From a virus, in IMG/VR virus record IMGVR_UViG_3300045120_000483, positions 40,882 to 104,881 of that record: a DNA stretch of 64,000 nt. The stretch is one strand, 5' to 3'. Below, piece by piece: positions 40,134 through 53,184 of this stretch (the first letter of the stretch is position 1; every line of letters begins with the position of its first letter). A program made the position numbers and the translations under genes. A model generated the notes under the pieces. The model ran no database searches, was not told the origin of the DNA, and saw only the letters and a list, made by a program, of their open reading frames with translations.

Positions 40134-40209
40134 GCCGATTTATCCTTAGTGGTTAAAGGTCTGCCCTTGTAACGCAGGTACGCGGGTTCGATTCCTGCAA
40201 TCGGCTCCA
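40134..40209 (+). tRNA. tRNA-Thr(TGT)
   Basis: cloverleaf, loop CTTGTAA, TCCA. Confidence 0.85.
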
Positions 40210-40216
40210 GTTCAAT

Positions 40217-40292
40217 GGGATCATAGTTTAGCGGTCAGAATCCCGCCCTTTCAAGGCGTGAGACCGGGGTTCGAATCCCCGTGGTCCTACCA
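40217..40292 (+). tRNA. tRNA-Glu(TTC)
   Basis: cloverleaf, loop CTTTCAA, ACCA. Confidence 0.9.
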
Positions 40293-40325
40293 TTCGAAGA
40301 AATGCATGAAATCATAAATACTTTC

Positions 40326-40688
40326 ATGCGTAATCAAATTAAATTAAAAGAATACAATCGACAACATTATTTGAAAATTCGGGTTTATCGTCGTGATGAA
40401 GTATTGGACCGTCAGCGTTTTATTAGAGGCAGAGTTAGGGAACTTAAAGTTGAACTTGGGTGTTCGCTTTGTGGATACAATAAATGTGCCAGGGCTCTCC
40501 AATTTCATCATTTAAGTGGAAAAGATGAAAATGTAGCAAGAATGGCGGCTCAAGGAAGATCGATGAAGAGAATTCTTGAAGAGATAGATAAGTGTGTTTG
40601 TGTATGTGCTAATTGTCATGCTGAATTACATGATGAAAAAGAGAAAAATAAAGCTCCGAAAGCTAACTTAGTAGAAGCGCCAGTCTGA
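40326..40688 (+). mobile_element. HNH endonuclease (putative homing endonuclease)
   Basis: CSLCGY..ALQFHH..EIDKC..VCANCHAELH; CATAAATA upstream. Confidence 0.85.
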
Positions 40689-40728
40689 AGAATTGGATGA
40701 GTGGGGGCGGAACCTACACGGGGCACCA
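40653..40728 (+). tRNA. tRNA-Phe(GAA)
   Basis: loop CTGAAGA; atypical T loop GCGGAAC; ACCA. Confidence 0.8.
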
Positions 40729-40732
40729 TTTT

Positions 40733-40826
40733 TGATCGGTAGCTTAAGCAAAGCGTATCTCACCAAAGGCCATACTGTGGTTTTTGGGGAGGTAAGATGG
40801 AGGTCCAAGCCCTCCCTGATCAGCCA
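40733..40826 (+). ncRNA. tRNA-like RNA with elongated anticodon arm
   Basis: TGATCGG/CTGATCA+GCCA, D and T arms, about 16-bp anticodon-position helix. Confidence 0.7.
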
Positions 40827-40831
40827 ATTTA

Positions 40832-40903
40832 TGTCCGATGTAGCTTAAGCGTAAAGCAGACCTCCAAGGGAGGATCGTTGAGGGTTCAAGCCCCTCCCGG
40901 GCA
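40832..40903 (+). ncRNA. degenerate tRNA-like RNA
   Basis: TGTCCG/CGGGCA, same D arm as 40733 element, T arm GAGGG-TTCAAGC-CCCTC, 3-nt anticodon-position loop, no CCA. Confidence 0.55.
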
Positions 40904-40968
40904 GAAACAAAACCGTGTAAGCCGGTGGCAAAGAGCGGGTTATCCCGCCGCTAGCTAAATCATTTTAA

Positions 40969-41042
40969 CGCGGGGTAGAGGAGTAGTTCCTTGCCAGCCT
41001 CATAAGCTGGAGACATCGGTGCAAGTCCGGTCCACGCAACCA
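40969..41042 (+). tRNA. initiator-type tRNA-fMet(CAT)
   Basis: CGCGGGG...CGCAACCA with C1xA72; loop CTCATAA. Confidence 0.85.
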
Positions 41043-41047
41043 TTAAT

Positions 41048-41131
41048 GGGCAAGGCGCGGTCTGGGAACCCAGAGAGTCTGTAAAACTCACGCTTATAGC
41101 TAGAGAGGTTCGATTCCTCTTTTGCCCACCA
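41048..41131 (+). tRNA. tRNA-Tyr(GTA)
   Basis: loop CTGTAAA, variable arm, ACCA. Confidence 0.85.
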
Positions 41132-41132
41132 T

Positions 41133-41211
41133 TTTCTACTCAGGTTCGAATCCTGACGTTCAAGGACAGTCTATAGGCGAACGAACACTTGCGGAGATCG
41201 GTCAGTAGAAA
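41133..41211 (+). ncRNA. circularly permuted tRNA-like RNA 1
   Basis: TTTCTAC/GTAGAAA terminal stem; T arm TCAGG-TTCGAAT-CCTGA first; then capped CGTTC/GAACG; weak D arm. Confidence 0.55.
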
Positions 41212-41220
41212 TTCATTTAT

Positions 41221-41297
41221 GGGACTGTAGCTCAATTGGGAGAGCAACGCTTTTGCAAAGCGAAGGTTGTGGGTTCAAGTCCCACCTGTTTCCACCA
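41221..41297 (+). tRNA. tRNA-Ala(TGC)
   Basis: G3:U70, loop TTTGCAA, ACCA. Confidence 0.85.
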
Positions 41298-41301
41298 TTA
41301 T

Positions 41302-41362
41302 GGAGGGGTACCGGCCGCCTCCGGATACGCTGGTCTCAAAGACCGTGAAAAGACCTCCACCA
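41302..41362 (+). ncRNA. NCCA-ended mini tRNA-like RNA (family A, copy 1)
   Basis: GGAGG/CCTCC-ACCA; homologous to 51672..51727. Confidence 0.55.
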
Positions 41363-41386
41363 AATTCTTATTATGGGAGAAAAGGA

Positions 41387-41830
41387 ATGAACTGGACGGA
41401 TAATTATCCAGAGTTTACGGATACAGCTAATTGCTTTATACGGGCAACTAGTATAGCCCTAGAGAAATCATATGAAGACTCTTACAAAGAAGTTTCATTT
41501 CTCATTGAAAAGAATAATGATCCGCCAGTGAGCCCCAATCAGGGTGTATATCTAGATGTTATGATTAACTACATGGAATCAGTAGGTTGGAAATGGAATG
41601 GAGTATCCCTCTACAGACCACAACGAAATGATGTTTTAGTGGGGGGTTATCTCAGGGATGTCCCCAAAAAAGGTTGTTTCGTTGTCCTAATTTTTCTTCC
41701 TGATTTGAAACAACCGAAACAACGTTATGATGGTCATGCCCTTGCTGTAATTGATGGCACTATTCATGAACATTCTGTTTTTAAAAAAGTTTTTGATGAG
41801 CACGCCCCTTTGTGGGGATATTTCTCATAG
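41387..41830 (+). CDS. papain-like (C39-type) peptidase-like protein
   Basis: NCFIRATSIAL...Y...GHALAVIDG; AAGGA RBS. Confidence 0.65.
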   Translation: MNWTDNYPEFTDTANCFIRATSIALEKSYEDSYKEVSFLIEKNNDPPVSPNQGVYLDVMINYMESVGWKWNGVSLYRPQRNDVLVGGYLRDVPKKGCFVVLIFLPDLKQPKQRYDGHALAVIDGTIHEHSVFKKVFDEHAPLWGYFS

Positions 41831-41848
41831 CAAAGTTTCCACCATTTC

Positions 41849-41923
41849 GCCTCTGTATTTTTAATGGTAGAAGTCATTCTTGGTACGAATGGAGATGGCG
41901 TTCGATTCGCCACTGAGGCACCA
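41849..41923 (+). tRNA. tRNA-Thr(GGT)
   Basis: loop TTGGTAC, ACCA. Confidence 0.85.
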
Positions 41924-41953
41924 TAGAAAAAGGAAAAGTTCAGAAGTAGGCAA

Positions 41954-42023
41954 GGGGGCTAGCCTCCGGTCGGTACTCTAGACCGGTGACCAACACAAAT
42001 CGTTGGTCTGATAAATGGCCCTC
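41954..42023 (+). ncRNA. candidate three-way-junction RNA
   Basis: GGGGGCTA/TGGCCCTC enclosing CCGGTC/GACCGG and GACCAAC/GTTGGTC. Confidence 0.45.
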
Positions 42024-42031
42024 AAATTTAA

Positions 42032-42115
42032 GGTGGATGGGGTCCAAGGTGGACACACGGCTTTGAATACCGTCCCTCCGAAAGGATGAGAGTTCGATTC
42101 TTTCATCCACCGCCA
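42032..42115 (+). tRNA. tRNA-Ser(TGA)
   Basis: loop TTTGAAT, long variable arm, GCCA. Confidence 0.85.
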
Positions 42116-42117
42116 GT

Positions 42118-42233
42118 TTCTTCGAAGATCACTGTAGTAGGTGTGGGTTCATGTTCCTTCTAGACTATAAGGAGCTAGCCGTACTAACAGGTGTCTAGAC
42201 CGATGTGGGCGATAATGTTAACCTTTCGAAGAA
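42118..42233 (+). ncRNA. candidate pseudoknotted RNA
   Basis: TTCTTCGAAG/TTTCGAAGAA; loop CTAGAC complementary to GTCTAG. Confidence 0.45.
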
Positions 42234-42240
42234 TTCAATT

Positions 42241-42322
42241 GCAGATATGGTGAAATGGAAAACACACTACGCTTAGAACGTAGCGCGAAAGCTTGCGGGT
42301 TCAAGTCCTGCTATCTGCACCA
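42241..42322 (+). tRNA. tRNA-Leu(TAG)
   Basis: loop CTTAGAA, variable arm, ACCA. Confidence 0.9.
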
Positions 42323-42328
42323 TAAATA
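42321..42328 (+). promoter_or_regulatory. late promoter CATAAATA overlapping tRNA CCA end
   Basis: upstream of GAGG RBS of 42352. Confidence 0.6.
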
Positions 42329-42351
42329 CTAAAAAAACAGAGGAAAATGAA

Positions 42352-43197
42352 ATGAAAAAATTGAGAGAAATCCTGAATGAAAAATTTATTAAAGATATGT
42401 CCTCTGTGGAACATAAGAGACATCGACAATCTGAAGCTGAAGGGAGCCAGTGGCATCAGGATCACCCCGTAAGTCATGAAAATATAATCAATCATTTTAA
42501 TGCTGCCACTTCGGAGGAGCATCATAATGGGATGAGTTGGTATAAAGATGCTCATCATACGATGAAGGCTTTAGCTCATGACACCAAAACTCCCCATCAT
42601 CAGATGGCGGGTCTAATTTCAAATTATTCGCCCCAGACACATTGGTTTACAAATATCCATACTGCCGCAAAAGTTGCCCGGGAGAAGAAAGCTGTGGGCG
42701 GCCCCGGATCAGGAGTTTTTGCTTCAGGTCAACAAAAACATGCTGCACATAGGATGTTGCAGGGGGAACATTATAATAACGTTCTTGTTGGACATAAGGT
42801 GAGACATTTTGCTCATTTAATTGAGCATGGGGGCAATGAACATCCCGATCACCCCCATGTTGTGTTGGATCGTCATGCACATTCGGTGGCATCAGGAAGC
42901 CGTATTACTGATGCGGCATTTAGTCAAGCCGGACTCAAATCCAAGAAAAAATATGCTGATATGAGTAATGCCTATATAAAAGCGGCTCATCATCTATCGG
43001 AAATTCACAAACAAACAATTCATCCTCATCAAGTTCAGGCTGTAACTTGGCTGGTACGTCAACGGTTGAATGCTCAAGAAGATAAAGGGCAGGCGAAAAA
43101 CAAAAGTAATAAGGCAAAAGATACATGGCACAAATATGCGGAGGAACATCATCCAAGTGTGATTGGTCAAGAGCCCGGAACAGGTTATGGCCATTGA
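42352..43197 (+). CDS. HhH-type DNA glycosylase-like (DUF7178-like) protein with capsid-targeting-like leader
   Basis: GMSWY..A..SPQTHW..N..GHKVRHF..LDRH..Y..AA..PHQVQAVTW; MKKLREILNE leader. Confidence 0.6.
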   Translation: MKKLREILNEKFIKDMSSVEHKRHRQSEAEGSQWHQDHPVSHENIINHFNAATSEEHHNGMSWYKDAHHTMKALAHDTKTPHHQMAGLISNYSPQTHWFTNIHTAAKVAREKKAVGGPGSGVFASGQQKHAAHRMLQGEHYNNVLVGHKVRHFAHLIEHGGNEHPDHPHVVLDRHAHSVASGSRITDAAFSQAGLKSKKKYADMSNAYIKAAHHLSEIHKQTIHPHQVQAVTWLVRQRLNAQEDKGQAKNKSNKAKDTWHKYAEEHHPSVIGQEPGTGYGH

Positions 43198-43206
43198 TTC
43201 AACTAA

Positions 43207-43282
43207 GCTTCACTAGCCCAGCGGTAGAGGCAGCAGATTTAAATCCTGTTAAGGCCGGGTCCGAATCCCGGGTGAAGCACCA
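43207..43282 (+). tRNA. tRNA-Leu(TAA), short variable loop
   Basis: loop TTTAAAT, 76 nt, ACCA. Confidence 0.8.
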
Positions 43283-43288
43283 TTTAAT

Positions 43289-43364
43289 GGCTCTTTAGAC
43301 AAACCGGCATAGTCGCTTCCCTCAAAAAGAAGAGTTCTGGATTCGAATTCCAGGAGAGCTACCA
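43289..43364 (+). tRNA. tRNA-Leu(CAA), short variable loop
   Basis: loop CTCAAAA, 76 nt, ACCA. Confidence 0.8.
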
Positions 43365-43373
43365 AAATATCTC

Positions 43374-43402
43374 TTGACATGTTCTGACACTTTGGTTATC
43401 AT
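43374..43402 (+). promoter_or_regulatory. sigma70-like promoter of second RNA block
   Basis: TTGACA-N17-TATCAT. Confidence 0.65.
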
Positions 43403-43410
43403 ATTGAAAG

Positions 43411-43552
43411 TGGATGGGAAGCGCGTTGTGTTTTCGTCTTTCAACAAAAGCGGTCCCGTCCATTCTTGTTCTTAATTGTGGAATACCTTGCTGTTCAAGG
43501 GCTTATGCAAGGGATAGACTTTGTAAGAAGGCGGTATTCCACAGTTAAGAAC
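43411..43552 (+). ncRNA. two long hairpin RNAs
   Basis: TGGATGGGA/TCCCGTCCA; 21-bp TGTTCTTAATTGTGGAATACC/GGTATTCCACAGTTAAGAACA. Confidence 0.5.
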
Positions 43553-43646
43553 ATGGTGTTCCTGGCTGGCTTAATCTAAGCTTCCCACAAGTCGCTTAGA
43601 ACGTTTTGTGGAACGTAAGGAAGGGTTCGAATCTCTTCGACACCAT
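43553..43646 (+). ncRNA. tRNA-like RNA with elongated arm bearing a Leu(TAG)-type loop
   Basis: TGGTGTT/GACACCA, GCTT/AAGC, CCACAAG.CG-CTTAGAA-CG.TTTGTGG, GTTCGAATC T loop. Confidence 0.6.
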
Positions 43647-43725
43647 CGTAATAAGAACGGGATGATATCTTAACCCGAATAACGGCGAATCCTTCGGAAA
43701 AGTCGTTTCGTTCTTTCTTTTTAAT

Positions 43726-43801
43726 GCCCCTTTAGCTCAGTGACCAGAGCGGTTGTTTTACATACAACGGGTCGGGAGTTTGATTCTCTCAAGGGGTACC
43801 A
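43726..43801 (+). tRNA. tRNA-Val(TAC)
   Basis: loop TTTACAT, ACCA. Confidence 0.9.
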
Positions 43802-43806
43802 GAGAT

Positions 43807-44000
43807 AACGGTGTTGTCGCACCGTAGCCCGGTTTGACGGGCTTAAAGGATAGCAGTAGCGATACTGTCAAAGTAAGGAAGCTTACAGCCTTACACCGGA
43901 GCAATCCGGCCCATTCAAGCAGGTCCGGTTCACCCGAAAGGGCAGTCATACTAGACTGTGGCGGGAAGCAGGACGATGAGGAGACAAGACCCGAAAGGGA
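43807..44000 (+). ncRNA. candidate GNRA-rich structured RNA
   Basis: eight hairpins with GCGA, GCAA and two GAAA tetraloops; TTTGAC/GTCAAA pseudoknot. Confidence 0.55.
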
Positions 44001-44009
44001 TAAGAATAT

Positions 44010-44083
44010 AGCCTAGTGCCGGAATGGTTACGGGACCGCCTGCAAAGCGGGAGACAGGAGTTCGATCCTCCTCTAGGCTTCCA
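44010..44083 (+). tRNA. tRNA-Cys(GCA)
   Basis: loop CTGCAAA, U73, CCA. Confidence 0.9.
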
Positions 44084-44195
44084 GCACACCGATGAAGATA
44101 TTCGTAGCGTTGTGGACCCGTGGCGAACGAATAAAAATAAGGGAGCAAATTTCAGTACGCGACTGACCCACAAGTTAACGGTTTTCCAATAGAAT

Positions 44196-44270
44196 GCATC
44201 TTTAGCTCAGAGGAAGAGTGTCGCATCGACATTGCGAAGGTCCGGATATCGTAATTCCGAAGATGTACCA
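44196..44270 (+). tRNA. tRNA-Val(GAC)
   Basis: loop TCGACAT (C33), T loop ATCGTAA, ACCA. Confidence 0.75.
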
Positions 44271-44291
44271 CCTTAAACAAAAGGAAACATT

Positions 44292-44441
44292 ATGTTTGAA
44301 GCTCTGTTGATGACAATTTTAATTGCTGTTGTTATTGTGGTTATAGCGGAATGGTTTTCTCCGGATGCCCGTCTTACATGGATTGTTCGTTTGTTGGTTT
44401 TTGTTTGGTTGATTTACAAGCTTCTTCCGTTTTTGAAGTAA
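44292..44441 (+). CDS. 49-aa two-TM membrane protein
   Basis: AAGGA RBS; MFEALLMTILIAVVIVVIAEWFSPDARLTWIVRLLVFVWLIYKLLPFLK. Confidence 0.6.
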   Translation: MFEALLMTILIAVVIVVIAEWFSPDARLTWIVRLLVFVWLIYKLLPFLK

Positions 44442-44448
44442 AGTTAAT

Positions 44449-44527
44449 GTGGGAGTAGGGGAGTCTGGCCGTCCCCTCTTGCCTTGGAAGCAAGAAATCG
44501 TGAGTTCGAATCTCACTTCCCGCACCA
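44449..44527 (+). tRNA. tRNA-Pro(TGG)
   Basis: loop CTTGGAA, ACCA. Confidence 0.85.
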
Positions 44528-44535
44528 TTTAGGAG

Positions 44536-44730
44536 TTGATAATGTTTTGGAAAAGCCTTACACCCCCTGAAGCCGTTGAGTATTATAATCTTCTACAAAA
44601 GATTAGCATTTGGTCGGGCCACTGTGAGACTTGTCGAAAGGCAAAGTCTCCGGTACAAGAAGACTTGCGACCAACGGACCAAGAGTTTATGCGTTGGAAT
44701 GAACTGTTCTGGAAATTTTGGACAAAATAA
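44536..44730 (+). CDS. hypothetical protein
   Basis: AGGAG RBS. Confidence 0.5.
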   Translation: MIMFWKSLTPPEAVEYYNLLQKISIWSGHCETCRKAKSPVQEDLRPTDQEFMRWNELFWKFWTK

Positions 44731-44770
44731 AACATAATTCTAGCTAATCGGAGAAGCGACGTTAGTTTAT

Positions 44771-44847
44771 GGGGGTATAGTTCAAAGGTAGAATAGGCGC
44801 TTGATAGGCGTTTGATCGTTCGGGTTCGATTCCCCGTATCCCTACCA
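44771..44847 (+). tRNA. tRNA-Ile(GAT)
   Basis: loop TTGATAG, ACCA. Confidence 0.85.
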
Positions 44848-44866
44848 GTTTTTTAAAAGCAATCGT

Positions 44867-45199
44867 CTATTTAGCGTCGTCTGGCGACGTGGAATAATCG
44901 TCTGGAGACAACTCCACAAGAGGTTGGGGTGGCGCTTCGGGAGTGTGCTCTGTCTGAATCCTAGCCATTGCCAGGGCATCGGAAGTTGATCGTAAAGTAA
45001 AAGCTAGCTTAGCTAGGTCTTTGTTATATTTACTAATACCGGCCTCAATGCCTTTGTCAATTTCTTTCTGGATGTCAACCCTGTCTTCTTGACAGTTTTT
45101 ATAGTATAAATCGTCACACTCCCGGTCCCTTCGGGCTAGTTCTCTATCATGCAGGATAATTGCTTCTAGGGTGGCGACGATCATTTGTCGAAAGTTCAT
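44867..45199 (-). CDS. hypothetical late protein
   Basis: GATAAATA and GAGG upstream. Confidence 0.55.
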   Translation of the reverse strand: MNFRQMIVATLEAIILHDRELARRDRECDDLYYKNCQEDRVDIQKEIDKGIEAGISKYNKDLAKLAFTLRSTSDALAMARIQTEHTPEAPPQPLVELSPDDYSTSPDDAK

Positions 45200-45231
45200 T
45201 TAATTTCCCTCTCTAAATCAATATTTATCGC

Positions 45232-45260
45232 TTGACATTCCTTATAATATAAAGTATCAT
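45232..45260 (+). promoter_or_regulatory. sigma70-like promoter (near-leaderless HD gene)
   Basis: TTGACA-N17-TATCAT. Confidence 0.65.
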
Positions 45261-45267
45261 TATTGGA

Positions 45268-45825
45268 ATGAATAGAGATTTTACCAGAATCAACGATGCC
45301 TGTATGTACGCCGGTCTGGCCCATGCATCCATTGGGCAGGTACGTAAGTACAGTAAAGAGTCCTATATCGTTCATCCCATGCGGGTTTGCCGCCTTCTTG
45401 ATGAAGTGGGGGAAACCGATGATGTTCTTATTGGCGCTCTTCTTCATGATGTGGTAGAAGATACGCCGATTACGTTGGCGGAAATTCAGGCCAAATTTGG
45501 GATGGAAATTGCCAAATATGTGGAAGGGATGACAGATGTCTCTAAACCTGAGGATGGTAACAGAGCCGTTCGTAAAACGATTGATAGGGAGCATTCTTGG
45601 GAAGCGTGTGGAGAATCCCAGACGATCAAGTGTGCGGACCTTATCGACAACACAGAGGACATTACTTCCCACGATAAAGATTTCTCTCAGGTTTACCTCC
45701 GGGAAAAGAGACTACTTCTTCCGGGTCTGACCAAAGCCAATCCAGCCCTTATTCAAAAGGCCTGGGAGACATTGGAAGCCGCTGAAATCAAAATTTTTGG
45801 AATTATTCAAGGAGAAAGAACATGA
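45268..45825 (+). CDS. HD-domain small alarmone hydrolase ((p)ppGpp hydrolase, Mesh1/SpoT-like)
   Basis: AH..GQVRKY..YIVHP..ALLHDVVEDT..IKCADLIDN. Confidence 0.9.
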   Translation: MNRDFTRINDACMYAGLAHASIGQVRKYSKESYIVHPMRVCRLLDEVGETDDVLIGALLHDVVEDTPITLAEIQAKFGMEIAKYVEGMTDVSKPEDGNRAVRKTIDREHSWEACGESQTIKCADLIDNTEDITSHDKDFSQVYLREKRLLLPGLTKANPALIQKAWETLEAAEIKIFGIIQGERT

Positions 45826-46052
45826 AGGTTGACGTGAAGGTGACTAGTGCGGGGAACGGCTCCCGGGCATATCCTAAAATTAGAAGGAGTATTGCCTACC
45901 AATACTTGGTTTGGTTCTCCACCCCTACAGTGGGGATAGTTGTATCCCAAGGTACGGGAACACAACTTCCCGGAAAATATTCAAATGATTGGGCCCCGGA
46001 GTGTTTTGAAGAGTGGACGGGAGAGGTCGTTTTAACGCTGACACAGGAGTAA
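45822..46052 (+). CDS. hypothetical protein
   Basis: coupled ORF; resembles 46056 and 53375 small proteins. Confidence 0.55.
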   Translation: MKVDVKVTSAGNGSRAYPKIRRSIAYQYLVWFSTPTVGIVVSQGTGTQLPGKYSNDWAPECFEEWTGEVVLTLTQE

Positions 46053-46055
46053 ATC

Positions 46056-46307
46056 ATGACATTGAGAGTCAAAGCTACAGAGGCCGAAGCTAAGAAAGCT
46101 GAGTTAGCGTTTCCCTGCCTGATGAGGTCCAAGAGCGATGGTTGGATTATGTTAGTTACGGGGGTAGAGAATAATATTGTTAGTGGTATGGTTGTTTCCG
46201 ATCCTAATAAGTATTGGTCTTCTCCGATCTTGAGATATTCGAATCGAATGACCGCTATTTCGACTCTTGAACCCTGGGTTGGTAAGGTAGAGTTTATTTC
46301 AGAGTAA
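46056..46307 (+). CDS. hypothetical protein
   Basis: AGGAG RBS. Confidence 0.55.
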   Translation: MTLRVKATEAEAKKAELAFPCLMRSKSDGWIMLVTGVENNIVSGMVVSDPNKYWSSPILRYSNRMTAISTLEPWVGKVEFISE

Positions 46308-46311
46308 GCCG

Positions 46312-46422
46312 GATGGTGGACAGTGAGGATGCATTCCCTGAGTGGTCAAAAGGGCCGGTCTTTTAAACCGATGCGAAAGCTACGTGGGTTCGAATCCCCC
46401 TGCATCCTCACTGTCCATTATC
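46312..46422 (+). tRNA. atypical tRNA-Lys(TTT)-like RNA (class II body, 22-bp extended acceptor helix, no CCA)
   Basis: core 46327..46408; loop CTTTTAA; GC-GAAA-GC variable arm. Confidence 0.7.
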
Positions 46423-47250
46423 ATATAATTTATAGAGGTCTTTGATTTTAAGACCGGTTTTGTTTTCTACATAACTGAAAACCTCCTGGAGGTCCGGTAG
46501 ATAAAGAATTTGGATGGGTTCTGTTACTCCTGAAAGTTTAAAGTCATCAACGGGAGATTTGAAGCCTTTGATTTCGATTAATTTTCCGTTTACCCGAAAG
46601 TCTGGGTAAAAGTTATGTTCTCTTTGAGTTATAGGATTGAAGTATAGATAAGGGGCCTTGTTTCTAGTAATGGAAATTTGGTGTTCTGTGCAAAAAATAT
46701 AGTAAGCTATTTCGTATGTGGAATTACAAAAAAATCCTTGATAGTATCCCTGTTTTCCTCTCCCCGCCCGGTGTCGAAAGCATCCAGGTTTTCCTTTTTT
46801 AGTTATGCTGATATTCTTCGCAGAAAGCGCCTTATTGCACTTAAGAGAACATGTCTTTAAACGTCGGTGTGTATATGGAAGAGGTACCTTGCATTCTTGA
46901 CATATTGAGGGAGATTGCAAATAAAGCTTTTTTGTGATTAAAGATTTTTGTTGTCCTGATATTCTAGAAATTTCCGAAAGACGTTTTTTAGTTTCTGATG
47001 AATGTTGCCACCCGCTTTCTTCTCTCTTTTTCATATTAGCTTTAGCTCCACAAGATTTAGAACAATACCGATATAAGCGACTTTTGTAGGAAATAGGATT
47101 CTGACAAAATTCACAGATTTTTGGGTTTAAAGCGTATTTTTGTTGACTACGCTCAGAAAGCCTGATACCATGGCAAGTAGGAGAACAAATTTTACTTCGC
47201 GGGTCTTGAGGGGTAAAAGGGGCTGAACAAACAAGACAAGAAATTGTCAT
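46408..47250 (-). mobile_element. PD-(D/E)XK homing endonuclease with Zn-ribbon repeats
   Basis: three CxxC..CS..C repeats; STYE..FYPDF..LIEIKG; AT-rich; in tRNA cluster. Confidence 0.8.
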
Positions 47251-47310
47251 TTCTAGAATTAACTCCGGAGTTGATAGGTTACAACTCTATTTATCTTCCA
47301 AAATATAGAT

Positions 47311-47387
47311 GGATCAATGGCTAGACTGGCAATGCAACGGACTCTTAATCCGTCCCCATGGGGGTTCGATTCCCCCTTGATCCTCCA
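47311..47387 (+). tRNA. tRNA-Lys(CTT)
   Basis: loop CTCTTAA, TCCA. Confidence 0.85.
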
Positions 47388-47394
47388 AAATTAT

Positions 47395-47458
47395 GCGGAG
47401 TTCCGATCTGGAAGTAACAAGAACTAATAGGATTTATCCTGATTAGTCCTCCGCACCA
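47395..47458 (+). ncRNA. ACCA-ended mini tRNA-like RNA
   Basis: GCGGAG/CTCCGC-ACCA with two internal hairpins and no anticodon loop. Confidence 0.55.
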
Positions 47459-47463
47459 AGTTT

Positions 47464-47539
47464 ACCCGTAGATGCTGCTAGTTGTGGCAGAATGATTGTC
47501 AATCATTTGAGTGGAGGGCAGAACTCCATACGGGTGCCA
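47464..47539 (+). tRNA. tRNA-Asp(GTC)
   Basis: loop TTGTCAA, G73, atypical T loop GCAGAAC. Confidence 0.75.
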
Positions 47540-47544
47540 TTTAA

Positions 47545-47601
47545 GGGGTCGGGTATATTGGTACCAGATAAGATGCGGTAAAAGTCCGTCTCACCCCACC
47601 A
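47545..47601 (+). ncRNA. anticodon-armless mini tRNA-like RNA
   Basis: GGGGT/ACCCC-ACCA; D-like GGTA-TATTGG-TACC; T-like GCGG-TAAAAGT-CCGT. Confidence 0.6.
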
Positions 47602-47606
47602 AGTCA

Positions 47607-47675
47607 GGAAGAAACATCGGTGCAAATCCGGTACAGATAACGGTTTCTGTTCGTCCAGTAGACTAGGACGCTTCC
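47607..47675 (+). ncRNA. circularly permuted tRNA-like RNA 2
   Basis: GGAAG-var-T arm-capped acceptor ACAGA/TCTGT-D arm GTCC/GGAC-CTTCC. Confidence 0.75.
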
Positions 47676-47768
47676 GCTCCTACCTGGGTATAGCTTTCCC
47701 CTAAGAGTGGTTTCTGGGGGTAAAGGGTGAGCGTCCCATAAAAAACGGAACCCACTAATTTTGAGCTA

Positions 47769-47842
47769 GGGGGAGATACGGTTCGATTCCGATACTAGTC
47801 GCGCGTGAAAGCTAGTTGGACCTAATGGATATGGTCGCCCCC
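47769..47842 (+). ncRNA. circularly permuted tRNA-like RNA 3
   Basis: GGGGG-var-CGG TTCGATT CCG-capped ACTAGT/GCTAGT-D arm GACC TAATGGATAT GGTC-CCCCC. Confidence 0.75.
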
Positions 47843-47846
47843 GTTA

Positions 47847-47937
47847 CCCGTCTAGAACTGGTGTTCAGAGGAGCCTTATAAACTCTTTGCTCCGGACTGG
47901 AGTCTTTGGCGCGGATCGTAACCGTGAGGCGGGACCA
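47847..47937 (+). ncRNA. tRNA-like RNA with 14-nt anticodon-position loop
   Basis: CCCGTCT/AGGCGGG-ACCA; GAAC/GTTC; GGAGC/GCTCC; T arm CGCGG-ATCGTAA-CCGTG. Confidence 0.6.
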
Positions 47938-47953
47938 ATTTAAGGAGTCTGTT

Positions 47954-48121
47954 ATGGAAGATGAAGAGGAAATATTCTACCGGGTTAAGTGTGTTCATTG
48001 CGGTCGTTTCATGTCGTCCAAAGACGCCCGTTATCACTTTATTCCGGATAGTCATTTTGGACCGGAAGAGGGATGGTGGGAGCATCGGGGATACTGTAAT
48101 GAAAATATATCTAAAGTTTGA
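47954..48121 (+). CDS. small Zn-finger protein
   Basis: AAGGAG RBS; CVHCGRF. Confidence 0.5.
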   Translation: MEDEEEIFYRVKCVHCGRFMSSKDARYHFIPDSHFGPEEGWWEHRGYCNENISKV

Positions 48122-48491
48122 TGAGAATGTCTTTCCCCCGAAGCTGACGCTTTCTGTCAAAGGTGCTCCCCATTCCCGTCAACACCGGGCAATTTTTAAG
48201 ACTTATCGAAATGCAATCTGGGAAGCTTGGGAGAAGGCAGGTTATAATCATCAGATTGATTATCCCATTGACCTGGACGTAATTTTTTGTGATCCGGCAT
48301 CACCAGATTTAGACCATACCCTAATGGCGCTCTATTCTGCTATTGATGGCAAGTCCACGCTGAAGGGTAATAAGAATGACAAGAGTCCAAGGCACCCGGC
48401 TCTGATGACGGATGATGGATATATTTCAGAAATTCGAATGCGAAACTTCTGGCCTAACGAAGCTACCAGAGCCGACAACCGAATCTATTAA
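48099..48491 (+). CDS. RusA-like resolvase/nuclease
   Basis: PDLDHTLMALYSAIDG...MTDDGYISE. Confidence 0.6.
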   Translation: MKIYLKFDENVFPPKLTLSVKGAPHSRQHRAIFKTYRNAIWEAWEKAGYNHQIDYPIDLDVIFCDPASPDLDHTLMALYSAIDGKSTLKGNKNDKSPRHPALMTDDGYISEIRMRNFWPNEATRADNRIY

Positions 48492-48505
48492 CAGGGAGAG
48501 AGATT

Positions 48506-48820
48506 ATGCAAGCAGAGATCAAGACCAAGTGGGCGAACGCTCTTCGTTCCGGAAAGTATGCCCAGGGCACCGGGGGCCTTAAGAAAGATAATGCCTTTTG
48601 TTGTTTGGGAGTCCTTTGTGATATTATTAATCCCGATGGTTGGGAGGATAGTACCATACCATCCCAAAGATTTACTTATGGAGGAGAAAGTTCTTATTGT
48701 TCCTTACCCGAAAGCCTAAAGACAGAGCTTGGGTTTAAAGCTACTCTGAGGTTCATTGAAATGAATGATCAACAAGGACGATCTTTCGACTATATTGCAG
48801 ATTATGTGGAGAACCTATGA
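48506..48820 (+). CDS. hypothetical protein, CCLGV/MND paralog family
   Basis: KW..ALRSGKYAQG..FCCLGVLC..MND..SF..IAD. Confidence 0.8.
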   Translation: MQAEIKTKWANALRSGKYAQGTGGLKKDNAFCCLGVLCDIINPDGWEDSTIPSQRFTYGGESSYCSLPESLKTELGFKATLRFIEMNDQQGRSFDYIADYVENL

Positions 48821-49005
48821 CCGTCCTGGAGCAATTTATAGAAACTTTTGGGGAAGCTTGTGATATGGATTCGCCGGACAGACTGTTTGTCTTCAAATCA
48901 ATTCTTCTTGAGTTTGCCACCTTGGCTATAAATGATAAGGACTTTCAAGAAGAAGTGCTTTCCGAAGCAAAGAAGGTCAATGAAATTTTAGCTAAAATGA
49001 CATAA
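48817..49005 (+). CDS. hypothetical protein
   Basis: coupled ORF. Confidence 0.5.
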   Translation: MTVLEQFIETFGEACDMDSPDRLFVFKSILLEFATLAINDKDFQEEVLSEAKKVNEILAKMT

Positions 49006-49081
49006 GCCTACGTAATTCAATGGATAGAAATCATGCCTTCGAAGCATGAAGTTGCGGGTCCGAATCCTGCCGTAGGTTCCA
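49006..49081 (+). tRNA. tRNA-Arg(TCG)
   Basis: loop CTTCGAA, TCCA. Confidence 0.85.
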
Positions 49082-49100
49082 CCTTAAAAAAGGATATATT

Positions 49101-49448
49101 ATGAAGCAACATAGTTTTCGTTATATTCTGCTTGAGCTTTTTGATGGAAATAATGTTTATTGGGATTATGGGTCGCCGCTCATTCTGAGAAAAGATGAAA
49201 CTTTTACATTTTTTGCGGCTTATTCTGCCAAAGATTTTCCGGAGTTTGAGGACCGACTAGCCATCAATTCTATGATACTTCCTAAAAAAGTAGTCTGGAA
49301 ATGGGATGATCTAGGTTCTAAAAAAGAGGCGGCCGGTACTTTCTCCTTGAGAGAGAAGCTTCCAGATTTTGCGCGCAGACTATCTGTCAAAGGTGTTAAT
49401 GATCCAACAGCCCTTAAAGCTGAAGGTCGGGTCCTGACCAAAGACTAA
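49101..49448 (+). CDS. hypothetical protein
   Basis: AAGGA RBS. Confidence 0.6.
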   Translation: MKQHSFRYILLELFDGNNVYWDYGSPLILRKDETFTFFAAYSAKDFPEFEDRLAINSMILPKKVVWKWDDLGSKKEAAGTFSLREKLPDFARRLSVKGVNDPTALKAEGRVLTKD

Positions 49449-49474
49449 ATTCACTTGTAGTCATACAACACTAT

Positions 49475-49939
49475 TTACTTGCATTCGTCAAAAATCTGAA
49501 ATGCCACAATTTGATCTGCCATCATGTAGCTGACTTTAGGCGTCAGGGGTCGTCTAGTGTCGATGAATGCCTGGACGATCTCCGGATAGAATCTTCGAAT
49601 TAGCATATCAGTTAGTTCGGGTTCCGGAACACTCCCTCTAGGGGTCTGGGTAGATGCCAAATGAAAACCAAAGCTGGCCCGGGGAGTCACACAGACTTGT
49701 TCCTTGGGAAGCATCAGAACAAGGGTACAGGCAGAGACACACCAGCCATCGATTTTGACCGGGGCATGAGAGGCCAGAAGGCGTTTATACCATTTGTTAT
49801 ATTCATCGACTTCGCCACCCCAATCATCTGCAATGGTGAAGTAGGTCTGACCGGAAGAGATAGAGGAAGTAGCAGGTTGGGCAAAACAGGTGGAGATTGT
49901 CAGAAAAAGAGCAAAAAAAGTCGAAAGAAATCTTGACAT
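49475..49939 (-). CDS. secreted ClpP/crotonase-like protein
   Basis: signal peptide; DWGGEV, IDGWCVSACTL, FGFH; GCTAAATA upstream. Confidence 0.65.
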   Translation of the reverse strand: MSRFLSTFFALFLTISTCFAQPATSSISSGQTYFTIADDWGGEVDEYNKWYKRLLASHAPVKIDGWCVSACTLVLMLPKEQVCVTPRASFGFHLASTQTPRGSVPEPELTDMLIRRFYPEIVQAFIDTRRPLTPKVSYMMADQIVAFQIFDECK

Positions 49940-50080
49940 GGGGCCTCTCTCTTGATAAGATACTAGGCATATTTAGCAAATTAGGAATTAGCCCGGAAGT
50001 AAGGCAATTCCTGATACCGAAGAAGGGGACTAACGTATTCCTCTTTTTCACCCCAATTTTCTGTGAAAAGGAACTTTATT

Positions 50081-50428
50081 ATGTCAGAGGTAGAGAAAGT
50101 CGTTCTGTCCCCCGAACAAATTCTGAATAGGGCAGCCGACCTGATTGATAAGAATGGTTTGGCCAAGGCAAGCTTTTGTACGGCGGACTTAGGAAACGAT
50201 TGGACGGAACAGGATTGTTTCTGTATAGCGGGGGCTATTGCTTTTGCTTCTGGTTATTCTGGTTCGCCCCGGTCTCCAATAAAATTACATAAGGCTTATA
50301 GTATTCCCCTTGAGAAGGAGTTTAGAGACTCTACTGAGGCCTTTGAATGGAATGATGACCCCAAAACCACCAAAAAAATGGTAGTCAATTGTTTGAGAGA
50401 TATGGCAAAGAAGGAGACGAAATCATGA
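50081..50428 (+). CDS. hypothetical protein (DUF6197-like, CIAGA/WND)
   Basis: L.RAADLI.KNG..C.CIAGAI..WND; promoter at 49933. Confidence 0.75.
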   Translation: MSEVEKVVLSPEQILNRAADLIDKNGLAKASFCTADLGNDWTEQDCFCIAGAIAFASGYSGSPRSPIKLHKAYSIPLEKEFRDSTEAFEWNDDPKTTKKMVVNCLRDMAKKETKS

Positions 50429-50748
50429 GCACTCTGAAGGATGTCTATCTAAAAGCGGCGGAATTGATTGAGAAGAATGGCCTCTACACGGCCGGGGGAT
50501 ATGCCAATAAACCTCTTTATTGTTGTAAAGAAAATGATTGTGTTTGTATAGCCGGGGCAGTTGTGATTGCTAAGGGGTTGTTGCTTGGTAAAGATGAATT
50601 CGATAATTATGCTAAAGAAGCAACAAAACCTTTGTTTTGTTATTTTGACCCGGATGGTCAATATGATAAACTGTTTGATTGGAATGACAGTCAAGGTACC
50701 AAGGAAGCAGCTATAGCAATCCTGAAAGAGATTGCCGAAACACTGTGA
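50425..50748 (+). CDS. tandem paralog of 50081 protein
   Basis: KAAELIEKNG..CIAGAV..WND. Confidence 0.75.
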   Translation: MSTLKDVYLKAAELIEKNGLYTAGGYANKPLYCCKENDCVCIAGAVVIAKGLLLGKDEFDNYAKEATKPLFCYFDPDGQYDKLFDWNDSQGTKEAAIAILKEIAETL

Positions 50749-50910
50749 GTTTTAGTCCACATGAAGCATTTGCCGCATGGTGGAACGCTCATTCCCATGA
50801 GGATCGACAAAGGTTAGTAACTGATAATGTACATATTGCTCTTGGAACGTGGGAGAGGATCGAAGGCCGGGATGTTTATATACGACAAATAGGTCAAAGT
50901 TACAGAGTTT

Positions 50911-50964
50911 GCCCGATCAGTATATTTTCGGAGCCATTAATTGGTGGTCCCGAATCGGGCACCA
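50911..50964 (+). ncRNA. ACCA-ended mini tRNA-like RNA
   Basis: 7-bp GCCCGAT/ATCGGGC-ACCA plus one long hairpin. Confidence 0.5.
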
Positions 50965-50970
50965 GTTCAA

Positions 50971-51044
50971 GCGGGAGTAGTTCAATGACAGAACATTGCT
51001 TTGCCAAGGCAAATACGGGGGTTTGATTCCCCCTTTCCGCTCCA
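50971..51044 (+). tRNA. tRNA-Gly(GCC)
   Basis: GCGGGAG, loop TTGCCAA, TCCA. Confidence 0.9.
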
Positions 51045-51050
51045 GTTTAT

Positions 51051-51137
51051 GGAAATGTCAACTAGCGGGGAGCTAGCACTGTTTGGAAAACAGTTGAGAC
51101 CGAAAGGTTGAGGGATCGTTTCCCTGAGTTTCCGCCA
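51051..51137 (+). tRNA. tRNA-Ser(GGA)
   Basis: loop TTGGAAA, variable arm, GCCA. Confidence 0.8.
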
Positions 51138-51146
51138 TTTTAAGTA

Positions 51147-51222
51147 GGGCCTGTAGTGATAGAAGGTAGCATTCCGCACTTGCAATGCGGGGGACACGGG
51201 GCAGTACCGTGCTGGTCCACCA
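51147..51222 (+). tRNA. tRNA-Ala(TGC), second divergent copy
   Basis: G3:U70, loop CTTGCAA, T loop GCAGTAC. Confidence 0.8.
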
Positions 51223-51248
51223 TTTAACATAATGAAAGGAAATACATC

Positions 51249-51716
51249 ATGGAAGCGTCAGAGGTTTTGAAGATTGTTGCTAACGGACTGGCCTCTCAGG
51301 GGGGCCCGGCTTATGAAAGTGGAGCGTGTCTTTATCGGGCTTCGGGAGGTCGAAAGTGTGCGGCCGGATGGATCATTACCGATGAAGAGATTATGAGGGG
51401 CGTTCGGAGTATGAATTTATCTAGCTTGAAACATGAAGGAACCCTTCCAAAGAGTTGTGAGGAACATTTTAGTCTATTAGAATTATTGCAAGAAGTTCAT
51501 GATAGTTGTGCTTTGAATTATTCATATGTTTCAGTAACAAAACCCGAACCGGATCAATTGGCTATGTGGAAGAATGTCCATGGACCATGCGGTATTGCAA
51601 CCAAACTGAGAAGGGTTGCCCGGGAAAATGATCTTGATCCGGAGATTGTGACTGAAGCGTTCAAAAATTATGGAGGGGTCACGGCCGATTCCGATGATGC
51701 TAGAAATAGCGAATAA
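51249..51716 (+). CDS. hypothetical protein
   Basis: L..QG.PA...CLYR..GRKCAAG...LQEVHD. Confidence 0.75.
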   Translation: MEASEVLKIVANGLASQGGPAYESGACLYRASGGRKCAAGWIITDEEIMRGVRSMNLSSLKHEGTLPKSCEEHFSLLELLQEVHDSCALNYSYVSVTKPEPDQLAMWKNVHGPCGIATKLRRVARENDLDPEIVTEAFKNYGGVTADSDDARNSE

Positions 51717-51727
51717 AACCTCCGCCA
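51672..51727 (+). ncRNA. NCCA-ended mini RNA (family A, copy 2)
   Basis: GGAGGGGT..CGGCCG..CCG..hairpin..AAA.CCTCC-GCCA, like 41302. Confidence 0.55.
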
Positions 51728-51736
51728 AATTTTAAT

Positions 51737-51811
51737 GACTTGGTAGCTCAGTGACAGAGCGGGAGTCCGTTAAACTCTTGGTCGGGGGTTTGATTCCCTC
51801 CCTTGTCTCCA
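51737..51811 (+). tRNA. atypical tRNA-Asn(GTT)
   Basis: loop CCGTTAA (C33), two U-U mismatches in acceptor, U73. Confidence 0.6.
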
Positions 51812-51825
51812 AATTAAAAATTTAT

Positions 51826-51906
51826 TCCCACGAAGGCGAAGCAAGGTGCATTCGCGTCCGCTGTTAACGGAAGATTAGGCAGGTTCGATTCCTGCGGTGG
51901 GAGCCA
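51826..51906 (+). tRNA. tRNA-Asn(GTT)
   Basis: TCCCAC/GTGGGA-GCCA, loop CTGTTAA. Confidence 0.85.
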
Positions 51907-51912
51907 ATTTTT

Positions 51913-51987
51913 GGGGTATTCGTCTAGCGGTCAGGATGCTGCTTTCTCAATGCAGTGACAGGGATTCAACTTCCCTATACCCTACCA
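51913..51987 (+). tRNA. tRNA-Glu(CTC)
   Basis: loop TTCTCAA, ACCA. Confidence 0.85.
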
Positions 51988-51993
51988 GTTCAT

Positions 51994-52070
51994 ACTCTAG
52001 TAGCTCAGTGGAATAGAGCGTCACCCTGCGAAGGTGAGGGTCGGAAGTTCGAATCTTCCTTAGAGTGCCA
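51994..52070 (+). tRNA. tRNA-Arg(GCG)
   Basis: loop CTGCGAA, GCCA. Confidence 0.85.
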
Positions 52071-52076
52071 TAGAAA

Positions 52077-52098
52077 AAGGGAGCCGTTAAGCTCCCTT
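52077..52098. terminator. hairpin terminator between convergent units
   Basis: AAGGGAGC-CGTTAA-GCTCCCTT with A-run. Confidence 0.55.
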
Positions 52099-52122
52099 CC
52101 CCAACTCTTATTGAAAAGGTTA

Positions 52123-52314
52123 TTAACCTTTTACAGATACGTCCAAAGCGTCGGCCGCGTCATGAAGCTTGGTTGTCAGTTCGACAACTGCGGCTTTGTC
52201 ACCGCCTGCTGCGGCGATCTGGTCGGCAAGGTCCTTGAACTTTACGACGGCAAGACCGACTTCGGTTACCATACGGTCAACTTCAGTAGATAGGGCATCG
52301 AATTCTACGCTCAT
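52123..52314 (-). CDS. small Ala-rich helical late protein
   Basis: AAGGA RBS; GATAAATA upstream. Confidence 0.6.
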   Translation of the reverse strand: MSVEFDALSTEVDRMVTEVGLAVVKFKDLADQIAAAGGDKAAVVELTTKLHDAADALDVSVKG

Positions 52315-52389
52315 ATTTTATATTCCTTCTTTTGTTTGTTGTTGCAACAATAATAACGTCATGTGTACTATTTATCTTTCAAATTTCTT

Positions 52390-52464
52390 GGGGAATTAGC
52401 ATAACGGCTAGTGCATTCGGCTCTGACCCGAAAGGTGGGGGATCATTCCCCTCATTCCCTTCCA
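52390..52464 (+). tRNA. tRNA-Gln(CTG)
   Basis: loop CTCTGAC, atypical T loop, TCCA. Confidence 0.8.
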
Positions 52465-52472
52465 TTTTCTTC

Positions 52473-52501
52473 TTGACAACCCCTCTTTCATTCAATATAA
52501 T
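52473..52501 (+). promoter_or_regulatory. consensus sigma70 promoter
   Basis: TTGACA-N17-TATAAT. Confidence 0.85.
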
Positions 52502-52540
52502 GTGAAAATTGAACATGACAACAAAAAGGATATTTTCGTC

Positions 52541-52765
52541 ATGAATGACCGTCCGCAACTTAGTATAAAGCCCCGTAATTGGCCCGAAGCGGTATCTATG
52601 GGTAAGGAAAAAAGTTCCAAGTGTACCAAGCCTTATCGGAATACCGATGGGGGCAAGCTGGGACGTAAGCAGGCCAATTTGAGTCGCCGCCGCAACGACC
52701 ATGCCGCGACTATTAAGGCCGCCCGTGATCCTCAGGCATATAAGACACCGGGGAGCATGAAGTAG
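52541..52765 (+). CDS. small basic protein
   Basis: AAGGA RBS; ends YKTPGSMK. Confidence 0.55.
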   Translation: MNDRPQLSIKPRNWPEAVSMGKEKSSKCTKPYRNTDGGKLGRKQANLSRRRNDHAATIKAARDPQAYKTPGSMK

Positions 52766-53184
52766 ATGATGTCTCCCTATGAGATGAAACATCTTCATGA
52801 TTTTCGAATTTCCTGGTTCCGGGTTCTTGTGAATGGGACTAATGAAATTCTTCTGAATCATATGAAACTTCGGGAACCTACCGCTGAAATGGCGGAGTTC
52901 AATTTTCGAAGAGAATATCCGAAAGTTGATGATTATGAACTGGTGGAAATATGAGATATGTAGCCCTTACAAAATGGACCTTTTCTAAAAAGGTCATATG
53001 GCGACAATATATTTCCTTTCATGGTGGGTATACGGAGTATACCTGGATATTCTTGGATCGTTATAAGGAATATAGGGGAGAGTCTTTTCATATTAATGCA
53101 GAGGTTTATGTATCGGGAAGTATTACCCCCGATATTGGTCCGTGGTATGATGCGTTGAAGAGACATCCTTTCACCGTGTTTTAA
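52766..53184 (+). CDS. two coupled small hypothetical ORFs (52766..52954, 52951..53184)
   Basis: ATGA coupling. Confidence 0.45.

Follow-up and report, generated by a model that had tools for sequence, protein, structure and literature searches.

What kind of unit in a transfer RNA (tRNA) gene array carries the 3' end of a tRNA and has no means of decoding? Five short elements, here called E1 to E5, raise this question. They lie in a 64,000-nucleotide stretch of viral DNA (the window) that forms the final 64 kb, positions 40,882 to 104,881, of the linear, 104,881-nucleotide IMG/VR record IMGVR_UViG_3300045120_000483, which CheckV rates as 59% complete. On our best reading, by analogy, E1 to E5 may represent a short form, with encoded CCA, of the tRNA-like stable RNAs found in phage tRNA clusters, such as RNAC and RNAD of T4 and RNA1 to RNA3 of T5. 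That they are non-decoding, tRNA-style units of phage polycistronic tRNA operons is a tentative conclusion, to which we give a little less than an even chance.

Five CCA-ended elements in a phage tRNA array

The source is a T4-type phage, and the window encodes gp43 DNA polymerase, gp41 helicase, the gp44 and gp45 clamp proteins, UvsX, gp46, gp47 and gp32. Its tRNA array occupies 40.0 to 55.3 kb of the window (15.3 kb) on the + strand, and holds 26 tRNAs called by ARAGORN and four more found with Rfam, with small open reading frames (ORFs), one or more HNH endonuclease genes and an HD_4 hydrolase gene between them. CCA is encoded in nearly every array tRNA, the next unit follows after 4 to 9 A/T-rich bases, and the typical leader, in a comparison of 29 tRNAs, is ...TTAAT-G or ...TTTAT-G.

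E1 to E5 (Table 1) are punctuated in the same manner. E1 starts four nucleotides after the CCA of tRNA-Ala, E2 seven nucleotides after that of tRNA-Lys(CUU), and E3 five nucleotides after that of a tRNA-like unit at 47464-47539; E4 ends six nucleotides before tRNA-Gly(GCC), and E5 nine nucleotides before tRNA-Asn. Their leaders (...TTAT-G or TTTAA-G) are of the type found before the real tRNAs of the array. A preliminary description of this DNA had placed five short NCCA-ended elements here, spaced like tRNA genes, and both sequence and spacing confirm it.

In each element, the Watson-Crick pairs of the closing helix are followed by a purine discriminator and an encoded CCA. A hairpin of 6 to 7 base pairs with a seven-nucleotide loop stacks on the closing helix of E3, giving about 12 base pairs, which is the length of the acceptor/T minihelix of a tRNA. 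The 10-base-pair hairpin of E4 abuts the 3' strand of its closing helix.

ARAGORN calls none of the five a tRNA, and the Rfam model RF00005 (threshold 29 bits) has no match over them, even at E <= 5. No seven-nucleotide anticodon loop is present in any of them, the predicted loops being 3 to 6 nucleotides long except for one in E3. This sole seven-nucleotide loop (UAAAAGU) lacks U33, occupies the T-arm position and does not fit the T-loop consensus, and no T loop is found in any of the five. The elements had been described as acceptor-end mimics, and the combination of a closing helix and R-CCA with no anticodon loop and no ARAGORN or RF00005 call bears out that they are look-alikes of this end and are unable to decode. 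For E3, the claimed D-like hairpin and missing anticodon arm are indeed seen, and the loop of the claimed T-like arm departs from the consensus.

A parent tRNA was also sought in this genome. The best non-self matches of E1 to E5 are 10 to 16 nucleotides long (E >= 0.02), and their acceptor helices agree with those of the phage's own tRNAs over only three to four consecutive pairs.

Table 1. Positions in the window and predicted structures of E1 to E5 and of three adjoining features (bp, base pairs)
Feature	Position	Strand	Length	Closing helix (Watson-Crick)	Other structure or remark	3' end
E1	41302-41362	+	61 nucleotides	5 bp, GGAGG/CCUCC	Three-way junction; hairpin 1 of 7 bp with bulged A and loop CCGCCU; hairpin 2 GGUCU-CAA-AGACC; 8-nucleotide A-rich strand	A-CCA
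E2	47395-47458	+	64 nucleotides	6 bp, GCGGAG/CUCCGC	4-bp hairpin; 10-bp bulged hairpin	A-CCA
E3	47545-47601	+	57 nucleotides	5 bp	D-like hairpin with GG in loop; no anticodon arm	A-CCA
E4	50911-50964	+	54 nucleotides	7 bp, perfect, GCCCGAU/AUCGGGC	10-nucleotide single strand	A-CCA
E5	51672-51727	+	56 nucleotides	5 bp, as in E1	Second copy of E1 family; three pairs of hairpin 1 altered with pairing retained; hairpin 2 GCUA-GAAA-UAGC; 8-nucleotide A-rich strand	G-CCA
tRNA-Ala(UGC)	41221-41297	+			Directly upstream of E1	Encoded CCA
tRNA-shaped unit	47464-47539	+	76 nucleotides		Between E2 and E3; 3-5-nucleotide loop at the anticodon-loop position	G-CCA
ORF 51249-51716	51249-51716	+	155 amino acids		Conserved part ends ...FKNY (codon 141)	

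E1 and E5 form a two-copy family

E1 and E5 have in common ATTAT-GGAGGGGT-nn-CGGCCG-nnn-CCG on the 5' side and AAAA-(0/2)-CCTCC-R-CCA-AATT on the 3' side. A repeat search groups the 5' part as a family of 34 nucleotides with 79% identity (D13). When E5 is compared with E1, the semi-global score is 39, and the next best among approximately 105,000 genome windows on both strands scores 26; a coarser scan of 52,377 windows has a mean of 4.8 and a standard deviation of 3.3. The similarity is about 10 standard deviations above background, and each of the two is the single best match of the other in this genome. Coding similarity is rejected as its source, since the reading frame of the common sequence differs between the two sites.

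Both copies are predicted to form a three-way junction that consists of the 5-base-pair closing helix, one G, hairpin 1, hairpin 2, the 8-nucleotide A-rich strand and R-CCA. Hairpin 1 has seven pairs, a bulged A and a six-nucleotide loop (CCGNNU) in both, and the three pairs that differ between the copies (G-C/G-U, A-U/C-G and C-G/A-U) all stay paired. The sequence of hairpin 2 is wholly different, with a hairpin at the same place in both. With the fold intact despite three altered pairs and an exchanged hairpin, the comparison argues for selection on structure, in E1 and E5 only. By a rough estimate, which is a judgement and not a computed statistic, neutral drift would keep all of these features in about one case in a thousand. 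The family had been described as having two copies with different internal hairpins, a description that the unique best matches and the paired changes uphold. It had also been proposed that, in relatives, random rather than compensatory changes would mark decaying pseudogenes; this comparison was run within the present genome only, between E1 and E5, where all three hairpin 1 changes are paired.

A covariance model built from the two copies (R1) scores E1 at 83.6 bits and E5 at 73.3 bits, and detects no third copy in the 105-kb genome. Scans of IMG/VR, JGI metagenomes and GTDB genomes with the E1/E5 pattern returned only chance matches, in GC-rich DNA lacking tRNAs, and a BLAST search of E1 against plasmids returned no tRNA match. 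The ends GGAGGGG...CCUCCACCA may resemble the acceptor stems of bacterial tRNA-Tyr, a likeness that carries no weight here.

No close relatives of the phage were found in INPHARED, nor in IMG/VR in a search with neighbouring proteins. Its DNA polymerase is at most 39% and its gp32 at most 44% identical to any phage or IMG/VR sequence. The DUF7178 protein has relatives at 93% and at 61 to 66% identity; its homologues in IMG/VR (52 loci) have no further gene in common with the array and are therefore not syntenic relatives.

Enrichment in the array and predicted folding

A helix followed by NCCA is not rare in itself: with at least six pairs (one G-U allowed), NCCA and a length of 45 to 95 nucleotides, the bare pattern occurs 91 times on the + strand, including 29 occurrences in annotated tRNAs, and 49 times on the - strand. 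We also scanned with rules taken from real tRNAs, namely at least five Watson-Crick closing pairs, NCCA, 45 to 70 nucleotides, an A/T leader and A/T at position -1. On the + strand, these rules give seven matches in the 15.3-kb array, five of which are E1 to E5, versus nine in the other 48.7 kb; on the - strand, there are eight in the whole window and none inside the array. From the rest of the window, approximately 2.3 to 2.8 matches would be expected in the array. The element set is enriched in the array, and the enrichment is strand-specific. The two remaining array matches lie in the DUF7178 gene and inside an 87-nucleotide unit at 51051.

Relative to shuffled sequences, E2 and E4 fold strongly (z-scores of -3.4 and -4.0). 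With 40-nucleotide flanks, the pair probability of the closing helix is 0.99 for E2, 0.94 for E4 and 0.63 for E3, and that of E5 lies within this range of 0.63 to 0.99. The same calculation for the real tRNAs of the array yields values from 0.00 to 0.97, with a median of 0.59. Folding long stretches whole was uninformative.

Relationship to known RNAs

RNAC and RNAD of T4 are small stable RNAs of the tRNA cluster whose biological role is unknown (PMC3014915, PMC9697503). Their genes, rnaC and rnaD (species 1 and 2 RNAs), resemble E1 to E5 in lying among tRNA genes on the tRNA strand, with short A/T-rich spacers. The product of rnaC carries a tRNA T arm, that of rnaD ends in ...GCACCA, and the spacer between the two genes, AAATTAT, is the same as that between tRNA-Lys and E2. 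However, the T4 RNAs are 119 to 139 nucleotides long, compared with 54 to 64 here, each occurs in one copy in T4, and E1 to E5 have no T arm. A BLAST search of T4 rnaD and rnaC against the window matched only tRNA T-loop motifs, none of which is in E1 to E5.

In the T5 record, RNA1, RNA2 and RNA3 bear the annotation 'tRNA-like stable RNA with unknown functions', and RNAI, RNAIII and RNAIV are also located in its tRNA region. As in the array described here, these non-tRNA stable RNAs alternate with tRNAs, small ORFs and HNH endonuclease genes. They are 73 to 144 nucleotides long and come from an unrelated family (Demerecviridae), and the comparison is one of kind. E1 to E5, described here from sequence, share with the stable RNAs of T4 and T5 a location within a tRNA cluster, the strand of the tRNAs and tRNA-like punctuation.

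Synthetic minihelices and microhelices also combine an acceptor helix, a discriminator and CCA with no anticodon, and serve as substrates for enzymes whose recognition is confined to the acceptor end. These are laboratory-made and consist of a single 12-base-pair helix with a T loop, whereas E1 to E5 are natural, mostly predicted three-way junctions, and have no T loop. The mascRNA of MALAT1 is about 61 nucleotides long and CCA-ended. This RNA and the t-elements of plant mitochondria (PMC1920247) are likewise non-decoding, tRNA-like folds, which tRNA-processing enzymes cut from longer transcripts, but they are eukaryotic or organellar, their genes do not encode the CCA, which is added, and they serve to generate the ends of the RNAs on either side. 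With canonical tRNAs (RF00005) and armless mitochondrial tRNAs, the elements share the acceptor helix, discriminator, CCA and gene spacing; they differ in lacking an anticodon arm with a seven-nucleotide loop, a T loop and any match to the covariance model.

Several other candidates were rejected. The tRNA-like domain of transfer-messenger RNA (tmRNA) would have G3-U70, in place of which E1 and E5 have A-U, E2 and E3 have G-C, and E4 has C-G; moreover, the only tmRNA match in the window is at 58027-58310. This match corresponds to a permuted (two-piece) tmRNA (RF04321, 48.1 bits) located 3 kb downstream of the array, which hints at a host with a permuted tmRNA. YrlA-type Y RNAs (RF02553) have no match in 39900-58500 at E <= 5, no known riboswitch or small-RNA family in Rfam matches the elements, and the T run of an intrinsic terminator does not follow them. 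Nor are they obligatory spacers: most ORF/tRNA junctions in the array measure 0 to 48 nucleotides and lack one, and E2 and E3 belong to a 570-nucleotide run of RNA units only. Because most junctions do without them, the elements are better regarded as extra units.

For comparison with a T4-like array, we used one record, G006, in which 29 tRNAs with encoded CCA are spaced by the same grammar and whose polymerase is 39% identical. Within the locus G006:C1:61500-76500 (L156), positions 5442-5570 hold a unit of about 130 nucleotides with a closing helix of 8 to 9 base pairs and a canonical T arm but no CCA, like T4 rnaC, and the array has other hairpin spacers too. A class II tRNA-Tyr(GUA) at 4291-4373 of the same locus was missed by ARAGORN. 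In an array from an unrelated GC-rich phage (L031), there are stem-closed spacers lacking CCA. Structured non-tRNA units are thus common in phage tRNA arrays, and the short form with an encoded CCA described here is not a general feature.

Reading frames that adjoin E1, E4 and E5

The final 14 sense codons of ORF 51249-51716, together with its stop codon, lie within E5. In a collection of 5.8 billion proteins, the only close homologue of this ORF is P0122 (63% identical), which aligns as far as ...EAFKNY and ends ...FKNYS followed by a stop, exactly at the first base of E5. Because P0122 stops at the 5' edge of E5, the element is not part of the conserved gene, and in this phage the ORF merely continues into it. 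Because P0122 ends in FKNYS, an E5-like copy starting with GGAGG immediately after the Tyr codon is absent from that position in the relative. A similar layout, in which an ORF runs into a unit, occurs at HNH endonuclease ORF 40305-40688, whose 3' end overlaps a weak tRNA-like unit (40653-40728) that ends in ACCA and scores 24.3 bits against RF00005, below the threshold.

A 93-codon frame, ORF 50745-51026, is coupled by a GTGA overlap to the DUF6197 gene before it and extends across E4 into tRNA-Gly. Neither a homologue nor an entry of its own was found in the protein collection, and beyond about codon 55 the frame may not be a gene.

Upstream of this region, a 12-nucleotide direct repeat (GTTTCCACCATT), made of the 3' end of tRNA-Ala and the spacer, occurs at 41288-41299 and 41835-41846. 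It brackets a 547-nucleotide segment in which E1 comes first and is followed by ORF 41387-41830. Because the repeat brackets E1 and this ORF, the arrangement suggests that array units may be shuffled by recombination at the CCA punctuation, or inserted there.

Proposed processing and function

Bacterial RNase P and 3' trimming make use of a helix, a purine discriminator, CCA, and U/A at position -1 in an A/U-rich leader, and a helix followed by RCCA is a minimal RNase P substrate. Because the features kept in E1 to E5 are those used in these reactions, excision of the elements is probable, if by a modest measure. E1 to E5 would be transcribed together with the tRNAs from early-type promoters in the array, RNase P would cut the 5' side of each element, and the usual 3' trimming would halt at CCA. 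The predicted products are CCA-ended small RNAs of 54 to 64 nucleotides, akin to the stable RNAs of T4 and T5. A published account (PMC12710915) also discusses the RCCA requirement.

The elements might further act in trans, by occupying proteins that bind acceptor ends rather than by working on the ribosome. We suggest this because only features that such proteins read are kept, and regard it as doubtful. Candidate partners would include processing or CCA enzymes, synthetases, and host effectors that attack the 3' ends of tRNAs.

Several observations weigh against the proposal that E1 to E5 are non-decoding units of the tRNA operon. E1, E3 and E5 fold no better than shuffled sequences (z-scores of -0.9, -1.2 and -1.7), and the closing helix of E1 is weak in context, with a pair probability of 0.04 in the presence of 40-nucleotide flanks. 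Conservation rests on one intragenomic pair, E2, E3 and E4 being backed by the common grammar only. The R1 model recovers E1 and E5 and finds nothing in 30 other phage records. CCA-ended mini elements are absent from the G006 array. A cut at the 5' edge of E5 would deprive ORF 51249-51716 of its stop codon, which is a real difficulty for any processing model, and a cut at the 5' edge of E4 would likewise remove a stop if ORF 50745-51026 is real. Finally, any competitor of catalytic toxins must be very abundant.

Alternative explanations

The elements could instead be decaying or rearranged tRNA genes, that is, deletion derivatives of array shuffling that are perhaps still excised and have no function of their own. 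The array is evidently in flux. Just after E3, positions 47611-47635 are 88% identical over 25 nucleotides to 41010-41034, the variable and T-arm region of tRNA-Met(CAU) (repeat family D18), and the element located there therefore derives from a tRNA gene. The 12-nucleotide copy of the tRNA-Ala 3' end 547 nucleotides downstream, the HNH endonuclease genes, the several full-size units with sealed anticodon loops and the lack of mini elements in the other T4-like array also fit with decay, and the size and layout of E3 are those of a tRNA minus its anticodon arm. However, E1 and E5 keep a fold that is not a cloverleaf through paired changes and a swapped hairpin, none of the five resembles the tRNAs of this genome beyond three to four acceptor pairs, and a perfect helix, RCCA and the leader are kept in all five. 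Decay is a serious rival for E2 to E4, and for the set as a whole we consider it unlikely.

A second possibility is that the elements are cis-acting punctuation, in which tRNA-like modules for processing or stability, comparable to t-elements and mascRNA, set or protect the ends of the interleaved small messenger RNAs, and the excised RNA is a by-product. Three of the five lie at ORF/tRNA junctions, E1 between tRNA-Ala and ORF 41387-41830 and E4 and E5 between the end of an ORF and a tRNA, and t-elements provide a precedent (PMC1920247). Most junctions nevertheless have no such module (gaps of 0 to 48 nucleotides, as at 43197/43207, 44441/44449, 49005/49006, 53629/53630, 54625/54630 and others), E2 and E3 adjoin no ORF in their RNA-only run, and the stop codon of ORF 51249-51716 is inside E5. 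In E1 and E5, the hairpin 1 loop and the A-rich strand are also conserved more specifically than a generic signal would require. We judge this explanation decidedly unlikely.

It has also been proposed that the elements are decoys: a panel of CCA-ended acceptor-helix mimics with different helices that, once released by RNase P, would sequester host immune effectors or lead them astray. Their targets would be toxSAS pyrophosphokinases, MenT-type nucleotidyltransferases and GNAT acetylases that read only the first five acceptor pairs and CCA, and the decoys would act together with the HD-type hydrolase gene and the complete tRNA set of the array. Charging as minihelices and titration of uncharged-tRNA sensing, which the preliminary description also raised, are conjectures. 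The toxSAS enzyme FaRel2 reportedly reads only the first five acceptor pairs and CCA, and a minihelix is accepted and modified (bioRxiv 10.1101/2024.07.05.602228). E2 has all four positive determinants of FaRel2 (G1-C72, C2-G71, G4-C69 and Pu5-Py68), and the presence of an HD_4 (RelA/SpoT-type) hydrolase gene inside the array is a context compatible with the idea. The proposal has some biochemical plausibility; we nonetheless rate it improbable. The more elaborate claim of a modular decoy array that covers the elbow, the acceptor end and the anticodon loop is a narrative and not a result.

Could helix-plus-NCCA patterns simply have been picked by eye in a structured, tRNA-rich region? The bare pattern is common (91 and 49 occurrences), and three of the five folding z-scores are unremarkable. 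Even so, the leader and size rules leave seven matches in the array versus the 2.3 to 2.8 expected, all five elements abut a tRNA or tRNA-like unit at a distance of 4 to 9 nucleotides, and the E1/E5 similarity stands about 10 standard deviations above background. Chance is a very improbable explanation, and was already unlikely for E1 and E5.

For E1 and E5 only, a repeat of cassette mobility or recombination that marks the edges of inserted ORFs, and is not an RNA gene, is the least probable explanation of all: E1 does come first inside the segment bracketed by GTTTCCACCATT, E5 does begin exactly where the relative's homologous ORF (P0122) ends, and conserved ends with a variable centre are a layout known for recombination sites, but there are only two copies in 105 kb and no recombinase nearby, both copies are on one strand with NCCA and leader exactly as in tRNAs, and the 12-nucleotide repeat is tRNA punctuation that would itself be expected to mediate microhomology recombination.

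Other features of the array

The tRNA-shaped unit between E2 and E3 begins five nucleotides after E2, and its CCA supplies the punctuation of E3. It is one of five full-size, CCA-ended, tRNA-shaped units with tRNA-type leaders (40733-40826, 47464-47539, 51051-51137, 51826-51906 and 53713-53788). In these units, the arm at the anticodon position is long or has a loop of 3 to 5 nucleotides, or the D arm is missing, and neither ARAGORN nor Rfam calls them.

Between tRNAs there are two stretches, of about 360 nucleotides (43365-43725) and 210 nucleotides (43802-44009), that are highly structured and contain no ORF. The former opens with a near-consensus promoter, TTGACA-17-TATCAT (43374), and includes a T-arm-like GGGTTCGAATC motif with no CCA.

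The HD_4 gene of the array is ORF 45268-45825 on the + strand (185 amino acids; PF13328, a RelA/SpoT-type HD hydrolase domain, E 1.5e-13; phrog_990). It is preceded by a strong sigma-70-like promoter at 45232, and its product may be a small alarmone hydrolase.

Implications

For some fifty years, the tRNA clusters of T4 and T5 have presented tRNA-like stable RNAs whose function is unknown. Units that are short, encode CCA and lack an anticodon reduce this problem to the acceptor end and leave fewer possible partners, and the E1/E5 pair offers a defined fold to test. Should the RNAs be produced and bind enzymes or toxins whose target is the tRNA end, they would represent an RNA-based form of phage counter-defence or of translation control. 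If they are relics, they would show how phage tRNA arrays turn over and yet stay processable.

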